A DNA stretch of 45,123 nucleotides from the UHGV virus genome UHGV-1374414; one strand, 5' to 3'. Of the stretch, positions 6,499 to 44,611 are shown piece by piece; positions within the stretch are counted from its first letter, which is position 1, and each line of letters starts with the position of its first letter. Under the pieces are notes generated by a model, which was not told where the DNA came from, searched no databases, and saw only the letters and a list, made by a program, of their open reading frames with translations. The translations under genes and the position numbers were made by a program. Source of the DNA: a virus.

Positions 6499-6669
6499 AT
6501 GCGCATTAAAGCCAGCGAAGTAAAAGTCGGAATGCAGGTATGGTCCAAATTGCTGGGCGAGTATTTCACCGTTGCCGAGATTCGCAACAATGGCGAAGAG
6601 ATTGCCCTGTCTGACGGCATCTTCTCCATGATCGGCAGCGCTGACGCCGTAGTGAGGATTAAGCAATGA
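6499..6669 (+). CDS. small hypothetical protein (56 aa), translationally coupled to DNA polymerase
   Basis: ATG 6499 with AGGA upstream; stop overlaps polymerase ATG (ATGA); below the ORF-track length cutoff. Confidence 0.4.
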   Translation: MRIKASEVKVGMQVWSKLLGEYFTVAEIRNNGEEIALSDGIFSMIGSADAVVRIKQ

Positions 6670-8957
6670 AAGACTTCGAACGCCTTTTTCTCGATACCGA
6701 GACATTTAGCGGGGTGGACCTGAAGAAAGTGGGCGCATACGCCTACGCAGAACACCCAACAACCGAGATTATGATTTGCACGTACGCCATAGACGAGGGC
6801 CGCGTGCAGACATGGGATTGCACCGAGTCCCCAACAATGCCGCGTGAACTGCGCAAGGCGCTCCGCCAGGTATCCCGCAAGAAAGCAAAAATAGTGATGG
6901 CTAACGGCCTCCTGTTTGACCGCCTGGTTATTCGCGAGAAGTGGGGCATTGACCTGCCGGTAGGCCAGATCGAGGATACCATGATTATGGCCTTTCGCCA
7001 CGCGCTGCCGGGTAGCCTCGATATGCAGTGCCAGGTGTTGGGCGTCGACGCAGAGCACGCGAAGGATAAGGCGGGCAAGGCGCTGATCAAACGATTCTGT
7101 AAGCCAACCCCCAAGACCTACAAAATCCGCCGCTACACGCGCGAGACGCACCCCGAGGAGTGGGCTAAATTCCTGCGCTATGCCGCACTGGATATTATAG
7201 CGATGAGGGAAGTCTATTGGCGCATACCGGACTGGGGTAACACGCCGAAGGAAGATGAAATCCTGCTTATTGACCAGTTGATCAACGACCGCGGCTTCTA
7301 TGTGGACGTTGACCTGGCGAACGCCGCGATCAAAGCGGTGCAGGCGCATAAGGAAGAATTGAAGGAAGAAGCATGGGAGCGCTTCGGCGGTAAGCTGACA
7401 GGCAATGACTTCCTGCCAGCGCTGCGCGACCTGGCGCCTGCGTTCACAATCCACAACGCGCAGAAATCCACGCTTAACGACCTGCTGGAAGACCCGGACT
7501 TCCCCGACGAGGGCAAAGTGCTTATCGAGATGCGCCTCGGTGCGTCATCAACGGCATCGACTAAGTACAATCCGCTCGTTAATGGCTTATCCGCAGATGG
7601 TCGCCGTCGTGGGTGTCTCCAGTATGGCGGGGCGAAACGCACGCTACGCTGGGCGGGCAAAGGCTTCCAGCCGCAAAACCTGGCGCGTGGCGAGTACAGC
7701 GACGACCACGAAGGGAAGATTAAACGCCGCGAGGGTGAAAGCGACGTCTCGTTTTGGGTCCGGTCGCACATGCTCACCAACGGCATCAACTCCCTGTTAC
7801 GCGGGACCGCACACTGGGCGTATGACATATCGAAGCTAACCGCCTCGACCGTTCGCGGGTGCATCATTCCGGCGAAGGGCAAGAAGTTTGTCGTCGCGGA
7901 CTACTCCAACGTGGAAGGGCGTGGCCTTGCCTGGATCGCGGGCGAGAAAACCGCGTTAATGGTGTTTAAGGCCGGACGCGATATCTATTGCGAGACTGCC
8001 GGTAAGATGTTCGGCCTTGACCCGGACTACATTAAATCTAACCGCAAGGACTTACGTCAGATCGGTAAGGCGTGCGAATTGGGGTTGGGCTATGGCGGCG
8101 GCGTTGCGGCGTTCTTGCAGTTCGCTAAAAACCTGGGCCTCGACCTTTACACTATGGCTGACGTCATGAAAGGCACGTTCCCGGATCACATTTTGGCGGC
8201 GGCGAAACGAGGCTATGAGTACGCCCGCATTAACGAAGCGAAGCGCCCGCCGAAGCCTGGTAAGAAAGACGAGCGCCCAACTTACATACTGCCGAAAAAC
8301 GTATGGCTGACGTGCGACGCGATCAAACGTATGTGGCGTGAGGCTCACCCGAAGACGGTAGCCTTTTGGGCCGAGCTTGAGGACGCGGTGTTGTGTGCAA
8401 TCCGCAATCCGGGCAAAGCATACTGGGCTGGCGCTAACGTTCGCCCGGACGGTAGGAAAGCGCTCAAGATTGTTCGCACGAAGGCGAAGCACGACCCAAC
8501 CTTTGACGAGGAGCGCGACGACCCGGACGCCGCGGGGTGGTGGTTGAAAATTGAGTTGCCGTCGGGGCGCATCATGAGCTACCCCGGCATCGCGTTGTCT
8601 GTCACGACCGAGATTGACGAAGACACCGGCAAGAAGCGCACCAGCACACGCATTAAATATCAGGGCGAGAATCAGACGACGCGCCAGTGGGGCTTCCAGT
8701 ATACCTACGGCGGCAAACTGACGGAGAACATCGTACAGGCGTTATGCCGTGATATTCTCGCCTGGTCAATGCCAGGCGTTGAAGCCGCGGGCTATGAAAT
8801 CGTTCTATCGGTGCATGATGAATTGATCACCGAAGTGCCGGACACCGACGACTACACGACCGATGAGCTTTGCGCGCTGATGTGCGACCTGCCTATTTGG
8901 GCGAAAGGCTTCCCTCTTGCCGCAGAAGGCGATTGCATGTATCGCTACCGCAAGTAG
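6666..8957 (+). CDS. family A DNA polymerase with 3'-5' proofreading exonuclease domain
   Basis: 763 aa; Exo motifs FLDTETFS and YAALD; polymerase motif A DYSNVEGRGLAW, motif B RQIGKACELGLGYGGG, motif C SVHDE. Confidence 0.9.
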   Translation: MKDFERLFLDTETFSGVDLKKVGAYAYAEHPTTEIMICTYAIDEGRVQTWDCTESPTMPRELRKALRQVSRKKAKIVMANGLLFDRLVIREKWGIDLPVGQIEDTMIMAFRHALPGSLDMQCQVLGVDAEHAKDKAGKALIKRFCKPTPKTYKIRRYTRETHPEEWAKFLRYAALDIIAMREVYWRIPDWGNTPKEDEILLIDQLINDRGFYVDVDLANAAIKAVQAHKEELKEEAWERFGGKLTGNDFLPALRDLAPAFTIHNAQKSTLNDLLEDPDFPDEGKVLIEMRLGASSTASTKYNPLVNGLSADGRRRGCLQYGGAKRTLRWAGKGFQPQNLARGEYSDDHEGKIKRREGESDVSFWVRSHMLTNGINSLLRGTAHWAYDISKLTASTVRGCIIPAKGKKFVVADYSNVEGRGLAWIAGEKTALMVFKAGRDIYCETAGKMFGLDPDYIKSNRKDLRQIGKACELGLGYGGGVAAFLQFAKNLGLDLYTMADVMKGTFPDHILAAAKRGYEYARINEAKRPPKPGKKDERPTYILPKNVWLTCDAIKRMWREAHPKTVAFWAELEDAVLCAIRNPGKAYWAGANVRPDGRKALKIVRTKAKHDPTFDEERDDPDAAGWWLKIELPSGRIMSYPGIALSVTTEIDEDTGKKRTSTRIKYQGENQTTRQWGFQYTYGGKLTENIVQALCRDILAWSMPGVEAAGYEIVLSVHDELITEVPDTDDYTTDELCALMCDLPIWAKGFPLAAEGDCMYRYRK

Positions 8958-14024: not shown

Positions 14025-14491
14025 AATTACTGATTTGCGATTTGGATGGCGTTATTAACGGTTCAAGCGATGCGCGTGCCGACCTGGTTCCGGGTATAAA
14101 AACGAAATCAACCTTCTGGGCAAAGTGGCACAAAGCGCACGTACGCGAAGACCTGAACATGGATATGCTGCCGCTGTTGCGCATGTACAAAGAGCAAGGC
14201 TTCGAGATCGCGTATCTGACCAACCGGCAGCGAGAATGCTGGGACACGACCGCCGAACAACTGGAGGTCTTCCCGGTGGGCCGGTTGTTTATGCGCCATA
14301 TGCAGGACGACACCCCGCCGCCAGAGTTTAAGGCGTGCGCCGTGTTCAAAATGGTTTGCTATGCGGACGTATCGGAACTGGTCATCATTGAAGACTGTCC
14401 GAAGAACATCGCGGCAATTCGTCGGGCGTGTAGCGATCTGGTCCCGAAAATTTACGCAATAAATGTTGCAAAATTTACTTGCAACCAATAG
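14021..14491 (+). CDS. HAD-superfamily phosphatase (nucleotidase / polynucleotide 3'-phosphatase-like)
   Basis: 156 aa; HAD motif I LLICDLDGVI, motif II YLTNR, acidic motif IIEDCP. Confidence 0.55.
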   Translation: MKLLICDLDGVINGSSDARADLVPGIKTKSTFWAKWHKAHVREDLNMDMLPLLRMYKEQGFEIAYLTNRQRECWDTTAEQLEVFPVGRLFMRHMQDDTPPPEFKACAVFKMVCYADVSELVIIEDCPKNIAAIRRACSDLVPKIYAINVAKFTCNQ

Positions 14492-32829: not shown

Positions 32830-33534
32830 TTACTCGTCGTCGCCCATCTTAGCGATGATTTCACCCGCCTGTTTCGTAAGGTCAGTGATACCGAAGCTGT
32901 GGCCCATAGTGATTTTCGACTTCACATCTTCGACAACCTGCGTCGGTTTGCTAGGCGCGCCACCGGCTGGCGTGCCGGCCAGGACGGATGCAAAATCGGC
33001 GTTATTACGGAACTCTTTTTCAAGCTCTTCCATAGTCAGCGCGGACGGTTTGCCATCCTGCAAGACACGCACTTTCAAGCTGCCGTCTTCGCCGTCTTCC
33101 AGCGTCAGGCGGTCCATTACGTGGCGTTGCATGATGCCCGCATTCTTACCGAACAGCTTCGACGCCAGGTCTTTGGCAGCGCTGCCGATGGTTAGATCGT
33201 GGATCTGCTTGCGGTAGGCTTCGATTTTTCCCGATGTGTCTGCTTCGTGTTTCGCAAACTTATCCTTCCAGGACTTATCGATCGCTTCGAGGTCGCCATT
33301 TTTGCGCGCGGCGGCTTCCTCTTTCTCTTTCGCAAGGCGCTCAGCTTCGGCGCGGCGTTCGGCTTCTGCCTTCTTCTCGCTCACCAGCTTCGCGTTGTTG
33401 TCTTTCAGACCCTTGATTTCCGCCTGTACTTCTTCTGCGGTCATGAACGTTGATTTATACCCATCGCCATCGGCAACAAAAAGCGCCTTCATACCTTCCG
33501 GCAACGCGTCATATTCTGCTTTAGTAAGTTTCAT
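32830..33534 (-). CDS. capsid scaffolding protein
   Basis: ATG 33534 with GGGGGA SD; 234 aa, charged coiled-coil KAEAERRAEAERLAKEKEEAAARK; immediately upstream of capsid gene. Confidence 0.65.
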   Translation of the reverse strand: MKLTKAEYDALPEGMKALFVADGDGYKSTFMTAEEVQAEIKGLKDNNAKLVSEKKAEAERRAEAERLAKEKEEAAARKNGDLEAIDKSWKDKFAKHEADTSGKIEAYRKQIHDLTIGSAAKDLASKLFGKNAGIMQRHVMDRLTLEDGEDGSLKVRVLQDGKPSALTMEELEKEFRNNADFASVLAGTPAGGAPSKPTQVVEDVKSKITMGHSFGITDLTKQAGEIIAKMGDDE

Positions 33535-33624
33535 GCTATCCCCCTGGGATTGTGGCAGAGCAGGCCACCCGCTCGACTTCACGCTTCTAATATTATCAGC
33601 GATAAAAATAATCGCAAAATTCGC

Positions 33625-33653
33625 TTGCAATCCGCGTATTGGTTGCATATATT
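33625..33653 (+). promoter_or_regulatory. sigma70-like promoter TTGCAA-17-TATATT with tandem ATTGGTTGCA motifs
   Basis: Motif copies at 33638-33648 and 33651-33661; 25-nt stretch 33650-33674 identical to minus-strand 44510-44486. Confidence 0.5.
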
Positions 33654-33681
33654 GGTTGCACACCAACATGAGGATATGACA

Positions 33682-34194
33682 ATGATTAAAGTTAACTATG
33701 CCGATCTTAAAGCCGCTATGATGTGCGCCGCAACTAATGACGTGCGGTACTATCTGAATGGTGTATTTTTCGACGAGAAAGGATTCATCGTGGCCACCGA
33801 CGGTCATCGTTTGTTCTGCGGGTCCGCGGTTGTTCCCGGAGGTGAAAGTAAAATAGTAGCAATTAAAGGCCGCTTACCTACAAAATTCGAATACTGCAAC
33901 ATAGACGGCACATCCGCTGCGTTCTTTGATAGTAAAGACGTATTAATCGGTACCATACCCGTAGAGATCATAGACGGCAGATTCCCAGACTGGCGTCGTG
34001 TTACGTCTTTCGACAGCGCTAAAGTGGAGGCTATAGGGTTTGCCGGGGTATACCTGTCCGACGCCTGCAAAATTGCTAAATTGTTCGACCGTAAGTTTGA
34101 TAGCTTAAAACTGGAATTTCAGGGAGTAGACAAGGCGACACGTGTGCTGTTCAAAGGCGGTGCCTTCCTTGTTATCATGCCGATGCGTTTGTAG
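33682..34194 (+). CDS. truncated beta sliding clamp (DnaN)-like protein
   Basis: 170 aa; SD GAGGA 7 nt upstream; NDVRYYLNG, VATDGHRL, DGRFPDWRRV and C-terminal VIMPMRL match remembered E. coli DnaN domain II/III (QDVRYYLNG, ATDGHRLA, DGRFPDYRRV, VVMPMRL). Confidence 0.75.
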   Translation: MIKVNYADLKAAMMCAATNDVRYYLNGVFFDEKGFIVATDGHRLFCGSAVVPGGESKIVAIKGRLPTKFEYCNIDGTSAAFFDSKDVLIGTIPVEIIDGRFPDWRRVTSFDSAKVEAIGFAGVYLSDACKIAKLFDRKFDSLKLEFQGVDKATRVLFKGGAFLVIMPMRL

Positions 34195-34201
34195 CTAACA
34201 G

Positions 34202-34238
34202 AAAAAGGGGCCATCACGGCCCCCGAATTATTTTCTGC
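34202..34238. terminator. bidirectional intrinsic terminator
   Basis: A-run, ggggcc-atcac-ggcccc hairpin, then gaattatttt. Confidence 0.6.
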
Positions 34239-34444
34239 AACTCCAGCACTTGCGCCCGCAGCTTCGCGCCGCATTCCATATTTTTCACGTCAATCATCAA
34301 ATCTTCGTCGGGGTCCGCGGACGGGTTATCGAACTTGCACGGCGGTCGCAGTGCCGACTCCGTTAGCGGCATCAACGGCACGTTGCTTGATCCGCACGCG
34401 CTCAGCATCAAAACTACAATCAGGGCGGTTAGGGCGCGTAACAT
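34214..34444 (-). CDS. outer-membrane spanin (Rz1-like lipoprotein), partly embedded in i-spanin gene
   Basis: ATG 34444 with AAGAGG SD; signal peptide with lipobox LSAC; Pro-rich; out-of-frame overlap with 34326-34655. Confidence 0.6.
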   Translation of the reverse strand: MLRALTALIVVLMLSACGSSNVPLMPLTESALRPPCKFDNPSADPDEDLMIDVKNMECGAKLRAQVLELQKIIRGP

Positions 34445-34655
34445 ATTTAACAACCTCTTTCGTGATAGTCCGGTATTCTACGTCGCGGGCTTGTTCGGCC
34501 TGCACGGAGCGCTCAATAACTTTAGTTTGCTGCCGTTGGGCTTCTGCTTGCGCTTCTTGCGCCGCCTCCGCCACTACGCCAGCGCGATAGGAGTCACCTA
34601 GCCAGAATCCTACCACCAGACCGATAACCAGTCCGATCGCTGCATATTTAATCAC
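34326..34655 (-). CDS. inner-membrane spanin (Rz-like)
   Basis: GTG 34655 with GGGGG SD; N-terminal TM helix AAIGLVIGLVVGFWLG then charged coiled-coil AEAAQEAQAEAQRQQ. Confidence 0.55.
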   Translation of the reverse strand: MIKYAAIGLVIGLVVGFWLGDSYRAGVVAEAAQEAQAEAQRQQTKVIERSVQAEQARDVEYRTITKEVVKYVTRPNRPDCSFDAERVRIKQRAVDAANGVGTATAVQVR

Positions 34656-35751
34656 GCCATAGCCCCCTGTTTTTAAGCTGCGCAATAGTCATTAGTTCGC
34701 CAGTATCGGTGAACATCTTCGGCACTTTCACTCCGCGCATAATCTGGTCTGCGCGCTGCACCCCATATAATTCCTCCAGAATATGGCGCGGCTGGCGCTG
34801 CACCCAGGAGAAGAAATCAGTCTGCGCGTCGACCTGCTCACTCAGCAATCTGCCCGCTTCAGCCTTCAGTGCCGGACGCTTACCACTGGGCCAATCTTCC
34901 ATACCTTTGACTTTCCACGTCTCCGTCGACCGGCAGCAATAATGCAGCTTGCCAGGGCCAGCGCCATATTGTGATCCCGCCACCACTTTCCCTCCGCGCC
35001 TTCCTTTGGTGTCGGGAGTAACATCAACCGGATAAAACAGGCGATCGCGTAGCTGGCACATGGGAGAAGTATGCGTGTCCAATGTAGCCAACCATTGGCG
35101 ACCTTCGAGAATATCGTCATTAGCTTTTACCATTAATTCGCGGGCGGTCGCCGCATAGTGGTTGACCGCGGACTTAACAACGCTTGAGATTGCTTGCGCA
35201 CTACGACCGCCTAGCGCGCGCCTCACATCCGCGATAATTTCCATCGTCGGCTTGCCCTGGATGAAGCCAGCGCGCACCTGATTACCGATCTGCGTCCTGG
35301 TCCACTCAGAGAGTGAGTCAGGCCATTGCATCATCGTATTACCCTGGAACGGGTTTTTCATAGCCGTCGCTGCGATCTGTGCACCGGTCACTACCCCAAC
35401 CACCTCGACAGCCGGTACGGCGACCGCGGGCTGGATCGCTGCCGTTAATGTATCGGCAAGATAATCAGCCTCGGTGTCGGCGAACTCCTGAAGGCTTTCA
35501 GCCAGCGCCTTAAACTCGGTGCGCAGTTCCGTTTTGACGGTCTTGTCGAGTTGCGTCAACAGTGTGGTAAGCGCCTTGTTATTCATGGACTTTTTGCCAT
35601 CAAGTAACTCGGTCAGCTTACCCAGTAAAGTGGGCCGGAACTTCTCCCACATAGCCAGCACCCTTCGCGCCTGGTCATTGCTCAGGCGCTGGGTGAAGAT
35701 GTGACGGCGAATCATTCGATCCGCCATATATTGATTAATTGTCTTCGCCAT
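34648..35751 (-). CDS. minor head / head morphogenesis protein (position-based)
   Basis: 367 aa immediately downstream of portal gene with overlapping start. Confidence 0.5.
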   Translation of the reverse strand: MAKTINQYMADRMIRRHIFTQRLSNDQARRVLAMWEKFRPTLLGKLTELLDGKKSMNNKALTTLLTQLDKTVKTELRTEFKALAESLQEFADTEADYLADTLTAAIQPAVAVPAVEVVGVVTGAQIAATAMKNPFQGNTMMQWPDSLSEWTRTQIGNQVRAGFIQGKPTMEIIADVRRALGGRSAQAISSVVKSAVNHYAATARELMVKANDDILEGRQWLATLDTHTSPMCQLRDRLFYPVDVTPDTKGRRGGKVVAGSQYGAGPGKLHYCCRSTETWKVKGMEDWPSGKRPALKAEAGRLLSEQVDAQTDFFSWVQRQPRHILEELYGVQRADQIMRGVKVPKMFTDTGELMTIAQLKNRGLWRD

Positions 35752-44186: not shown

Positions 44187-44477
44187 CTATTTCGCAAGCT
44201 GGGAGAATAGTTCGCGCTGGGCTTTAATCCGGGCGACGTTAGTCACTGCCGTTTCGCCGATACCGAAGCGATACGCCAGGCGTTCACGGGCAAATGCCAG
44301 CGCGTAAGCCCTGATAGCCGCGCGCAACGGCTCGGGGTCTTCCATGCCCGCGGTCGCATCCATGATCGCAAACCAGGTCGGAGCTACCAGGCGCTCCCAC
44401 GGTGCTCTGCCGTGGGTATATCTCACTTCGACCGGTTTTGCCACCGCCATTGTGTAATTCCAGATTAACGCTCTCAT
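44187..44477 (-). CDS. hypothetical protein (first gene of minus-strand operon after control region)
   Basis: 96 aa; SD GAGGA 9 nt upstream; leader identical to that of DnaN-like gene. Confidence 0.55.
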   Translation of the reverse strand: MRALIWNYTMAVAKPVEVRYTHGRAPWERLVAPTWFAIMDATAGMEDPEPLRAAIRAYALAFARERLAYRFGIGETAVTNVARIKAQRELFSQLAK

Positions 44478-44505
44478 TGTTCAGTCCTCATGTTGGTGTG
44501 CAACC

Positions 44506-44534
44506 AATATAGCAGGGTGCCAGGGCGGATGCAA
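44506..44534 (-). promoter_or_regulatory. sigma70-like promoter TTGCAT-17-TATATT (minus strand) from two ATATTGGTTGCA repeats
   Basis: Minus-strand -35 = plus 44529-44534, -10 = plus 44506-44511. Confidence 0.5.
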
Positions 44535-44611
44535 CCAATATTAATCACGCGCATGAAAAAGTTGATCGCTATCTGCTGTGACTGCAAACTGCGTTTTTCA
44601 CTCCGCATAAT

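Follow-up and report, generated by a model that had tools for sequence, protein, structure and literature searches.

The virus genome UHGV-1374414, a stretch of 45,123 nucleotides that is called the window here, carries within its structural genes a short open reading frame (ORF) on the plus strand, which we name mini-beta. It encodes a truncated homologue of DnaN, the beta sliding clamp of DNA polymerase III (Pol III), without the parts for a normal ring, and the comparisons of sequence, profile and structure agree on this. As far as its sequence can tell, the name that fits the protein best is pocket-only mini-clamp. The homology is already found in database annotations and the family corresponds to PHROG 3007, so the gene as such was known before; the new point is that the family keeps the parts that form the pocket for clamp-binding motifs and drops those that form the ring, of which no earlier description was found in the literature. 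As its function we tentatively favour that of a decoy for proteins carrying such motifs.

Mini-beta is a truncated homologue of the beta clamp

An original prediction, made from the sequence alone, had proposed a plus-strand ORF of 170 aa with a Shine-Dalgarno sequence of its own and four DnaN-like motifs, and all of this was borne out. The protein contains all four motifs, NDVRYYLNG, VATDGHRL, DGRFPDWRRV and, at its C-terminus, VIMPMRL (Table 1 gives the coordinates). The start at 33682 is preferred over the in-frame ATG at 33676, since it lies 7 nt past the GAGGA and coincides with the N-termini of the homologues, as seen in the family alignment and by comparison of the leaders. Residue numbers of the window protein are given in the 172-aa frame throughout.

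In BLASTP against E. coli DnaN, residues 11-109 aligned with DnaN 139-247 at 36% identity, and the C-termini were also matched (AFLVIMPMRL at 163-172 of the window protein, AAYVVMPMRL at DnaN 357-366). When the PDB sequences were searched with phmmer the best clamp sequence gave an E of 1e-8, with residues 12-116 against DnaN 140-254, and apart from one chance match (E 0.77) the matches were beta clamps only. A family profile from a 52-member alignment matched E. coli DnaN in hhalign with a probability of 99.2% (E 8e-20). The scores against curated models were low: 23.3 bits for Pfam DNA_pol3_beta_2 (PF02767), under the cut-off of 27, and 28.1 bits for TIGR00663 (NCBIfam), under the cut-off of 137.65, and in the Pfam scan of the window protein the N-terminal clamp domain was unmatched. 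Judged by these searches the similarity to DnaN is far above chance, and the proposed check for beta-clamp homology by BLASTP and profiles was positive, albeit below the Pfam cut-off. This was further supported by structure comparison. The AlphaFold2 model of the window protein is confident, with a predicted local distance difference test (pLDDT) score of 93.9 and a predicted template modelling (pTM) score of 0.89; it shows the beta-alpha-beta-beta-beta repeats of the clamp fold, and its top structural matches were all sliding clamps.

Pocket residues are kept and dimer-interface residues are lost

The homology is divided over two pieces of DnaN, domain II with its connector to domain III and the second beta-alpha-beta-beta-beta motif of domain III (Table 1). 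A single deletion of ~59 residues, corresponding to DnaN ~255-313 in the hhalign alignment, lies directly before the segment that begins at residue 117, and in a T1-like homologue the Pfam domain DNA_pol3_beta_3 aligns only at profile positions 71-121 of 121. On these alignments the window protein consists of domain II and the latter half of domain III, with domain I absent; it is not a three-domain DnaN of ~366 aa, as it measures 170-172 aa and only domain II and half of domain III align. The original prediction was right about the match to domain II and about the loss of domain I, but it overstated the loss in domain III, of which about half (DnaN ~255-313) and not most is missing, and understated the C-terminal match, which is not limited to the last strand and takes in the whole motif of DnaN 314-366. 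The two retained pieces appear to keep their native mutual arrangement, since the AlphaFold2 model is confident. The model shows just two long helices, and residues 64-72 are coil; in domain II of DnaN a second inner helix is located at the matching place.

The residues of the dimer interface have been assigned to I78, R103 and F106 in domain I and to I272, L273, E298 and E304 in domain III (PMC11139829), and every one of them lies in the parts that are missing from the window protein. Because both sides of the interface, in domain I and in DnaN ~255-313, are gone, neither canonical ring closure nor ordinary action as a processivity clamp would be expected, which agrees with the earlier claim that a normal ring cannot be formed. 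The anatomy likewise argues against encircling of DNA, loader-dependent loading and processivity.

The pocket, on the other side, is kept nearly entire. In E. coli DnaN it consists of subsite I (R152, L155, T172, G174, H175, R176, L177, P242, R246, V247, V360 and M362) and subsite II (H175, N320, Y323, V344, M362, P363, M364 and R365) (PMC11139829). Of these 18 residues the window protein shares 16 with E. coli DnaN and differs at N320 (A123) and V344 (D152), as compared to identity at 28 of the 104 other aligned positions (27%; Fisher p 9e-7). The same was seen over 121 family members, where mean identity to E. coli DnaN was 0.83 at the pocket and 0.29 elsewhere (Mann-Whitney p 3e-7). Judged by the known clamp geometry, the retained parts would meet at the boundary of domains II and III and carry the pocket, and the discarded parts would face the partner subunit or the adjoining domain I.

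A family of phage proteins with constant architecture

Mini-beta was found by tblastn in 252 phage records, in 16 of them at an identity of at least 80% (Dhillonviruses) and in 236 below 60%, mostly at 30-45%. The window protein is 88-98% identical to the proteins of EP23, SO-1, TheodorHerzl and AV129 and 30-50% identical to the rest of the family, which includes T1-like phages (of Salmonella, Escherichia and Klebsiella), Kagunavirus, Bcep781-type Burkholderia phages and phages of Proteus, Vibrio, Hafnia, Serratia and Acinetobacter. In a large protein database the family forms 438 clusters at 90% identity, nearly all of 169-193 aa. A profile search of 1.84 billion representatives (at 50% identity) gave a best 150 that were all of 92-236 aa, with neither proteins of DnaN length nor domain fusions among these 150; longer database entries are N-terminal over-calls or read-through. 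Many phage proteins of 160-250 aa in BFVD have the clamp-like fold of mini-beta, and the 52-sequence alignment has shared invariant motifs. Copies of the CHD5UKE2 type carry a one-residue insertion within the invariant DGRFPD, giving DGLLFPD or DGRLFPD (L007 2167-2682; P0005). The ratio of nonsynonymous to synonymous substitution (dN/dS) among Dhillonviruses, 0.27 against TheodorHerzl and 0.19 against CHD5UKE2, indicates that the gene is under purifying selection. Taken together, the mini-beta family is old, stable and selected, and is not a recent truncation.

In length and architecture the window gene is a member of PHROG 3007, the family that GenBank records as DNA polymerase III beta subunit or beta clamp domain protein; it matched the PHROG profile with an E of 2.3e-56, residues 3-172 covering positions 2-186 of 190, and no feature sets it apart from the other members. 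Other database names are 'possible moron gene product' and, for Bcep781 gp15, 'DNA Pol III b subunit fragment'. The PHROG label itself, RusA-like Holliday junction resolvase, we reject, as the only Pfam match is the sub-threshold beta clamp and the top structural matches are all sliding clamps. This 'RusA-like' label has spread to NC_013600, NC_016566, NC_031924 and PQ850629 and is likely a systematic misannotation. A functional study of the family was not found in the literature, in line with the earlier statement that no function had been described.

The surroundings of the gene differ between phage groups. In Kagunavirus, Bcep781 and Gorganvirus the homologue lies on the opposite strand within structural blocks. 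In T1-like Bas79 (L004 2589-5531) it is the last gene of an operon, after a 207-aa protein of unknown function, a ParB-like helix-turn-helix (HTH) protein, a C5 cytosine methyltransferase and a 57-aa protein. Lambdoid prophages of Enterobacterales carry it in the early-right operon, between cro/cII and the genes for the replication initiator and a DnaB-type helicase (L008/L009 8001-8537; L010 7001-7657), a place quite unlike the structural-block islands of virulent phages, and a polymerase gene was absent from the lambdoid prophage replication modules examined. In Serratia phage Opt-169 mini-beta is located downstream of a primase-polymerase gene.

Mini-beta occupies an accessory slot with its own expression signals

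The window phage is of the Dhillonvirus type, and the region is 92-96% identical to Dhillonvirus coliphages such as TheodorHerzl (Bas14), SO-1, EP23 and AV129. Mini-beta is flanked by minus-strand genes, a scaffold gene at 32830-33534 and spanin and head-morphogenesis genes at 34214-35751, and the orientation against the surrounding structural genes, as originally predicted, was thereby confirmed. TheodorHerzl has the order major capsid, hypothetical protein, 'putative DNA polymerase III beta subunit', o-spanin, i-spanin, minor capsid, portal and terminase, in which only the beta-subunit gene is on the opposite strand; the capsid-adjacent hypothetical protein is labelled as the head scaffolding protein in other RefSeq records. 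Other genes of the window phage code for a family-A DNA polymerase (6666-8957), a DUF2800/PD-(D/E)XK protein, a SNF2-type helicase and a Dam methylase.

Coverage of mini-beta was seen in 16 of the 159 matching Dhillonvirus records. In most of the records the slot holds a 254-aa protein with an Nmad5 domain (PF18757, E 1e-54), on the same strand and with the same promoter. The slot (window 33533-33681; L003 2030-2200; L007 830-2185) thus combines one conserved promoter with three cargo states: nmad5 in most records, nmad5 followed by mini-beta in the five phages EP23, CHD5UKE2, rolling, 101114BS4 and WF5505, and mini-beta alone in the window phage, TheodorHerzl, SO-1, AV129 and JLBYU27. No nmad5 was found anywhere in the window. 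CHD5UKE2, with the gene order gp13, nmad5, mini-beta, has an extra copy of the terminator-like hairpin and of the ribosome-binding-site leader between nmad5 and mini-beta, which suggests that cassettes are exchanged by recombination at the duplicated hairpin/leader repeats. With a predicted promoter and terminator, its orientation, a low G+C content (47.2% for the ORF, 54.7% for the whole window) and a variable presence, mini-beta has the features of a moron-type cassette.

In Dhillonviruses nmad5 is a dispensable gene that is toxic on cloning, and by a K-to-E substitution in Nmad5 the phage escapes the Tmn defence (PMC11846954); the slot therefore appears to hold accessory genes of phage-host conflict. 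Nmad5 and mini-beta are alike in slot position, promoter and orientation, and as dispensable accessory genes that are sometimes in one operon. They differ in that Nmad5 has a predicted link to DNA modification and is implicated in Tmn escape, and in their sequences, which had no similarity in BLASTP (E 0.86). The C-terminal third of Dhillonvirus Nmad5 (residues ~157-253) is common to proteins of Pseudomonas M6/PaMx11-like, Bordetella and Shiga toxin (Stx)-converting lambdoid phages, and one of the M6/PaMx11-like proteins is annotated as a 5-hydroxymethyldeoxyuridine (5-hmdU) DNA kinase domain protein. A PADLOC scan for known defence or anti-defence components gave no match.

Table 1. Features of the mini-beta locus, in window coordinates
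Feature	Position	Strand	Description
Sigma-70-like promoter	33625..33653	+	TTGCAA-17 nt-TATATT; 9/12 consensus match; upstream region conserved; predicted
Two direct TATTGGTTGCA copies	33637..33660	+	Overlap spacer and -10; phage-wide promoter/operator motif
Shine-Dalgarno GAGGA	33670..33674	+	Read from sequence; 7 nt 5' of ATG 33682
Mini-beta ORF	33682..34194	+	170 aa + stop; alternative in-frame ATG 33676 gives 172 aa
Homologue of DnaN domain II + II-III connector	33706..34023	+	Residues 11-116 = DnaN 139-254; DVRYYLNG, TDGHRL, DGRFPDWRRV; BLASTP, hhalign, phmmer
Second beta-alpha-beta-beta-beta motif of DnaN domain III	34024..34191	+	Residues 117-172 = DnaN 314-366; IGF..Y, VIMPMRL; hhalign
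Bidirectional terminator-like stem-loop	34199..34237	both	Core GGGGCC-ATCAC-GGCCCC 34207-34223, between convergent mini-beta and o-spanin

The expression signals of the slot are conserved together with it. A consensus scan for promoters is insignificant when taken alone (2 sites against 1.5 expected), and our promoter call rests on conservation and reuse, not on the consensus score. The 150 bp upstream, including the promoter, are essentially identical among Dhillonviruses with different cargo, and the promoter region is conserved in TheodorHerzl, BF9 and CHD5UKE2 regardless of what lies downstream. In BF9 an identical GAGGA leader is found ahead of nmad5, and in CHD5UKE2 ahead of mini-beta. 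The 11-mer TATTGGTTGCA is found in 12 copies with at most one mismatch in the window (at 2681, 9865, 12807, 12824, 14480, 17533, 33637, 33650, 41073, 43980, 44499 and 44530) as compared to 0.67 expected, and none of 100 shuffles reached 12; the copies are often paired beside gene starts. This 11-mer probably serves either as a promoter element of the phage or as an operator for one of its regulators. At 14468-14490 it forms the palindrome TGCAACCAAcctaTTGGTTGCA. The longer TATATTGGTTGCACACCAACATGAGGA, which takes in -10, leader and Shine-Dalgarno sequence, is common to the mini-beta promoter and to 44478-44540 on the minus strand. There, the second TATATTGGTTGCACACCAACATGAGGA promoter precedes an operon of small ORFs (96, 89, 114 and 180 aa) that starts from 44477 (44187-44540, minus strand). 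Since TATTGGTTGCA and TATATTGGTTGCACACCAACATGAGGA recur in the window, the slot appears to use a recurrent host-type phage promoter. The hairpin at 34207-34223 has a minimum free energy of -16.8 kcal/mol (z -3.3), matches the terminator scan on both strands and has a T-run on the minus strand. The original prediction of a strong promoter and a bidirectional terminator was accordingly upheld for the terminator and for the presence of an own promoter, which is conserved and reused, but not for its strength, given the 9/12 match and the insignificant scan. We predict that mini-beta is transcribed independently from its own promoter, possibly early.

Possible functions of a clamp without a ring

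The reading that we favour, and that may well be right although we hold it only tentatively, is that mini-beta is a pocket module without a ring that works in solution, where it would serve as a decoy or competitor by binding clamp-binding motifs; the binding, the partners and the benefit are what we infer here. Its pocket would compete with the beta dimer of the host for QL[S/D]LF-type peptides in host proteins. Being monovalent, it would capture mainly partners that diffuse and are singly attached, such as the translesion polymerases Pol II, Pol IV and Pol V, Hda, MutS/MutL and free delta, and the multivalently anchored Pol III replisome would be captured less well. As an outcome, host clamps could be left free for phage replication, or the DNA-damage and repair responses of the host could be blunted. 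The argument for such selectivity is speculation on our part. With somewhat less confidence still, we consider it possible that a free-standing copy of a receptor pocket is a new class of phage host-manipulation protein. The pocket copy would then soak up monovalent motif proteins, maybe including a clamp-directed toxin or defence effector, and access to the host clamp would be reprogrammed.

The partners are probably host proteins, because the gene is optional in phages that bear a polymerase, is present in lambdoid prophages, and no phage protein with a convincing motif was found. Motifs of the QLxLF type, the hexameric type and the Qxx(L/M)xF type occur 2, 1 and 3 times in the ~60 predicted phage proteins, with 0.95, 5.3 and 2.9 expected, and none of these matches is terminal or in the phage polymerase. 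Among neighbours of mini-beta elsewhere (Nmad5, gp13, the ParB-like protein, the C5 methylase and small ORFs) no convincing clamp-binding motif was seen; one doubtful QMHLSL lies inside the ParB HTH. Recruitment of the phage's own polymerase, which had been offered as one possibility in the original prediction, is disfavoured, because the gene is found in only 16 of 159 records, no motif was found in the polymerase or enriched in the proteome, and homologues occur in lambdoid prophages where no polymerase gene was seen. The clamp is a target of other phages. The small RNA (sRNA) PreS of lambda increases the translation of dnaN and helps lambda to replicate its DNA (bioRxiv 10.1101/2024.10.31.621285), and clamp supply therefore appears to be limiting for lambda replication. 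MuC of phage Mu is reported to use the clamp (PMC12867686), and delta is reported to bind monomeric beta ~50-fold tighter than the ring (PMC11139829).

Several points weigh against a decoy. The pocket is substituted at N320 (to A) and V344 (to D) in the window copy, and the TheodorHerzl copy (L001 6685-7197) has the changes D42N, R108S and V109F, which correspond to DnaN D173, R246 and V247; with such changes in both copies, the pocket does not appear to be absolutely constrained in this clade. For the TheodorHerzl changes at invariant and pocket positions, either relaxed constraint or altered specificity could be the cause. The pocket is also the most conserved part of DnaN generally, partly for structural reasons, and its retention is no proof of peptide binding. 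Lambdoid phages replicate with host Pol III and the beta clamp, and because they do so an indiscriminate decoy would hurt them. Moreover, the replication-gene context in lambdoid prophages and in Opt-169 fits a positive role in replication equally well.

Such a positive role could be that of an adaptor or tether, in which the pocket holds a host motif protein (Pol III alpha, clamp loader, Pol I or ligase) and another surface holds phage DNA or a phage replication protein, so that host machinery would be recruited without ring loading, much as by the non-ring herpesvirus factor UL42. We regard this as unlikely, although it is far from implausible. It would explain why the lambdoid prophage copy lies between cro/cII and the initiator and helicase genes and why the Opt-169 copy follows a primase-polymerase gene, and it is also favoured by K132 and K135, which are family-specific, nearly invariant and located on a retained inner helix, and by the pI (isoelectric point) of 8.6 of the window copy. 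A strong basic charge was, however, not found in the family, where the pI is near neutral (5.4-9.2, with a median of 7.7); two of the four inner helices that domains II and III have in DnaN are gone, no fusion or constant neighbour indicates a partner, and in Dhillonviruses the gene is dispensable (16/159) and lies in the head-lysis block, away from replication genes. Alternatively, mini-beta might help DNA-modification genes (nmad5, or the ParB-like and C5 methyltransferase genes), for instance as a link between them and replicating DNA or host factors. The nmad5-mini-beta operon of five Dhillonviruses, in which mini-beta is last, the nmad5 that alone fills the slot in most others, and the Bas79 operon, which mini-beta ends behind a ParB-like/C5-methylase pair, point in this direction, as does the behaviour of nmad5, dispensable, toxic when cloned and able to escape Tmn by a point mutation (PMC11846954). 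Yet the window has mini-beta and no nmad5, the Kagunavirus, Bcep781, Gorganvirus and lambdoid contexts have no adjacent modification gene, Nmad5, the ParB-like protein and the methylase are without a clamp-binding motif except for the doubtful QMHLSL, and Nmad5 and mini-beta are dissimilar in sequence, which makes a helper function improbable to our minds.

Hardly more probable is a poison or regulator of the host clamp or its loader, whose exposed sheet edges or core surfaces would pair with beta monomers or trap the delta wrench and which, by blocking ring closure, loading or unloading, would shut down host replication. The tighter binding of delta to monomeric beta (~50-fold) runs via subsite I, a part of the pocket that the window protein has kept, and additional contacts of delta are made by a five-residue beta loop (PMC11139829). 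The phage has a polymerase of its own and could afford to shut off the host replisome, and other phages do encode clamp inhibitors, such as Gp168, which is seen in complex with a beta clamp (PDB 7evp). Against this, the canonical interface (domain I and I272/L273/E298/E304) is gone and no known surface for pairing with host beta is left, and homologues occur in lambdoid prophages, which, by established knowledge, need the host clamp and loader. The beta loop that contacts delta presumably lies in domain III beside I272/L273, and would then fall in the deleted segment as well. A genuine clamp might also be built from four subunits, with 3 of the 12 beta-alpha-beta-beta-beta motifs each, in a head-to-tail tetramer. 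Here, the arithmetic fits (3 motifs x 4 = 12), the length of the family is stable, and the two kinds of motif are structurally equivalent by the pseudo-symmetry of the clamp; but the new junction, of a helix-less motif with a half-domain, would be without precedent, the monomer is modelled confidently as a compact fold (pTM 0.89), no phage clamp loader was evident among the ten large ORFs screened, and the gene is dispensable in the genus. We therefore consider a tetramer very unlikely. Least credible of all is that mini-beta is a decaying, functionless fragment of a captured dnaN. The Bcep781 gp15 annotation as a 'fragment', the many Dhillonviruses that are without the gene and the invariant residues mutated in TheodorHerzl would fit with decay, and are outweighed by the dN/dS of 0.19-0.27, a deletion architecture and length that are constant over hundreds of homologues at 30-50% identity, dedicated expression signals and a confident compact fold.

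Relation to known systems and implications

As compared to DnaN (Pol III beta; PF00712/PF02767/PF02768; TIGR00663), which has ~366 aa, mini-beta has ~170 aa; domain I and the leading half of domain III are missing, and in domain II the model has one inner helix fewer. It is also phage-borne, dispensable and located in an accessory slot, and no ring is expected. The herpesvirus processivity factors UL42, UL44 and PF-8 bind DNA by a strongly basic face and their own polymerase by a site at the connector loop. These non-ring factors, of herpes simplex virus (HSV UL42), human cytomegalovirus (HCMV UL44) and Kaposi's sarcoma-associated herpesvirus (KSHV PF-8), have two full domains, whereas mini-beta has 1.5, and mini-beta is further unlike them in the near-neutral charge of its family and in having no evident polymerase partner. 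As to a basic DNA-binding face and a dedicated polymerase partner as in UL42, the window copy has a pI of 8.6 (family median 7.7) and the conserved K132/K135 on the inner helix, and no motif was found in the phage polymerase or enriched in the proteome. Closer in strategy are Gp168 (PDB 7evp), MuC of Mu and PreS of lambda, which like mini-beta are centred on the beta clamp, its pocket or its supply. They are, however, ligands or regulators of the clamp and not homologues of it, and mini-beta copies the receptor site of the clamp; as such a copy it would act on the partners of the clamp and not on the clamp itself.

The peptide pocket of the beta clamp is a hub for replication, repair, mutagenesis and initiation control, and an antibiotic target. 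If mini-beta did not bind motifs, a new explanation would be needed for why a non-ring protein conserves its pocket so strictly. If, on the other hand, the decoy reading is true, this would explain a gene that is mislabelled in hundreds of phage genomes, including those of coliphages that are candidates for therapy, and mini-beta could serve as a minimal soluble scaffold on which pocket ligands are studied or screened. Mini-beta would then be a widespread, genetically encoded competitor for clamp partners and represent a host-takeover or anti-host strategy that is aimed at the clients of the clamp, and the copying of the pocket would be a strategy common to hundreds of virulent and temperate phages of Proteobacteria.

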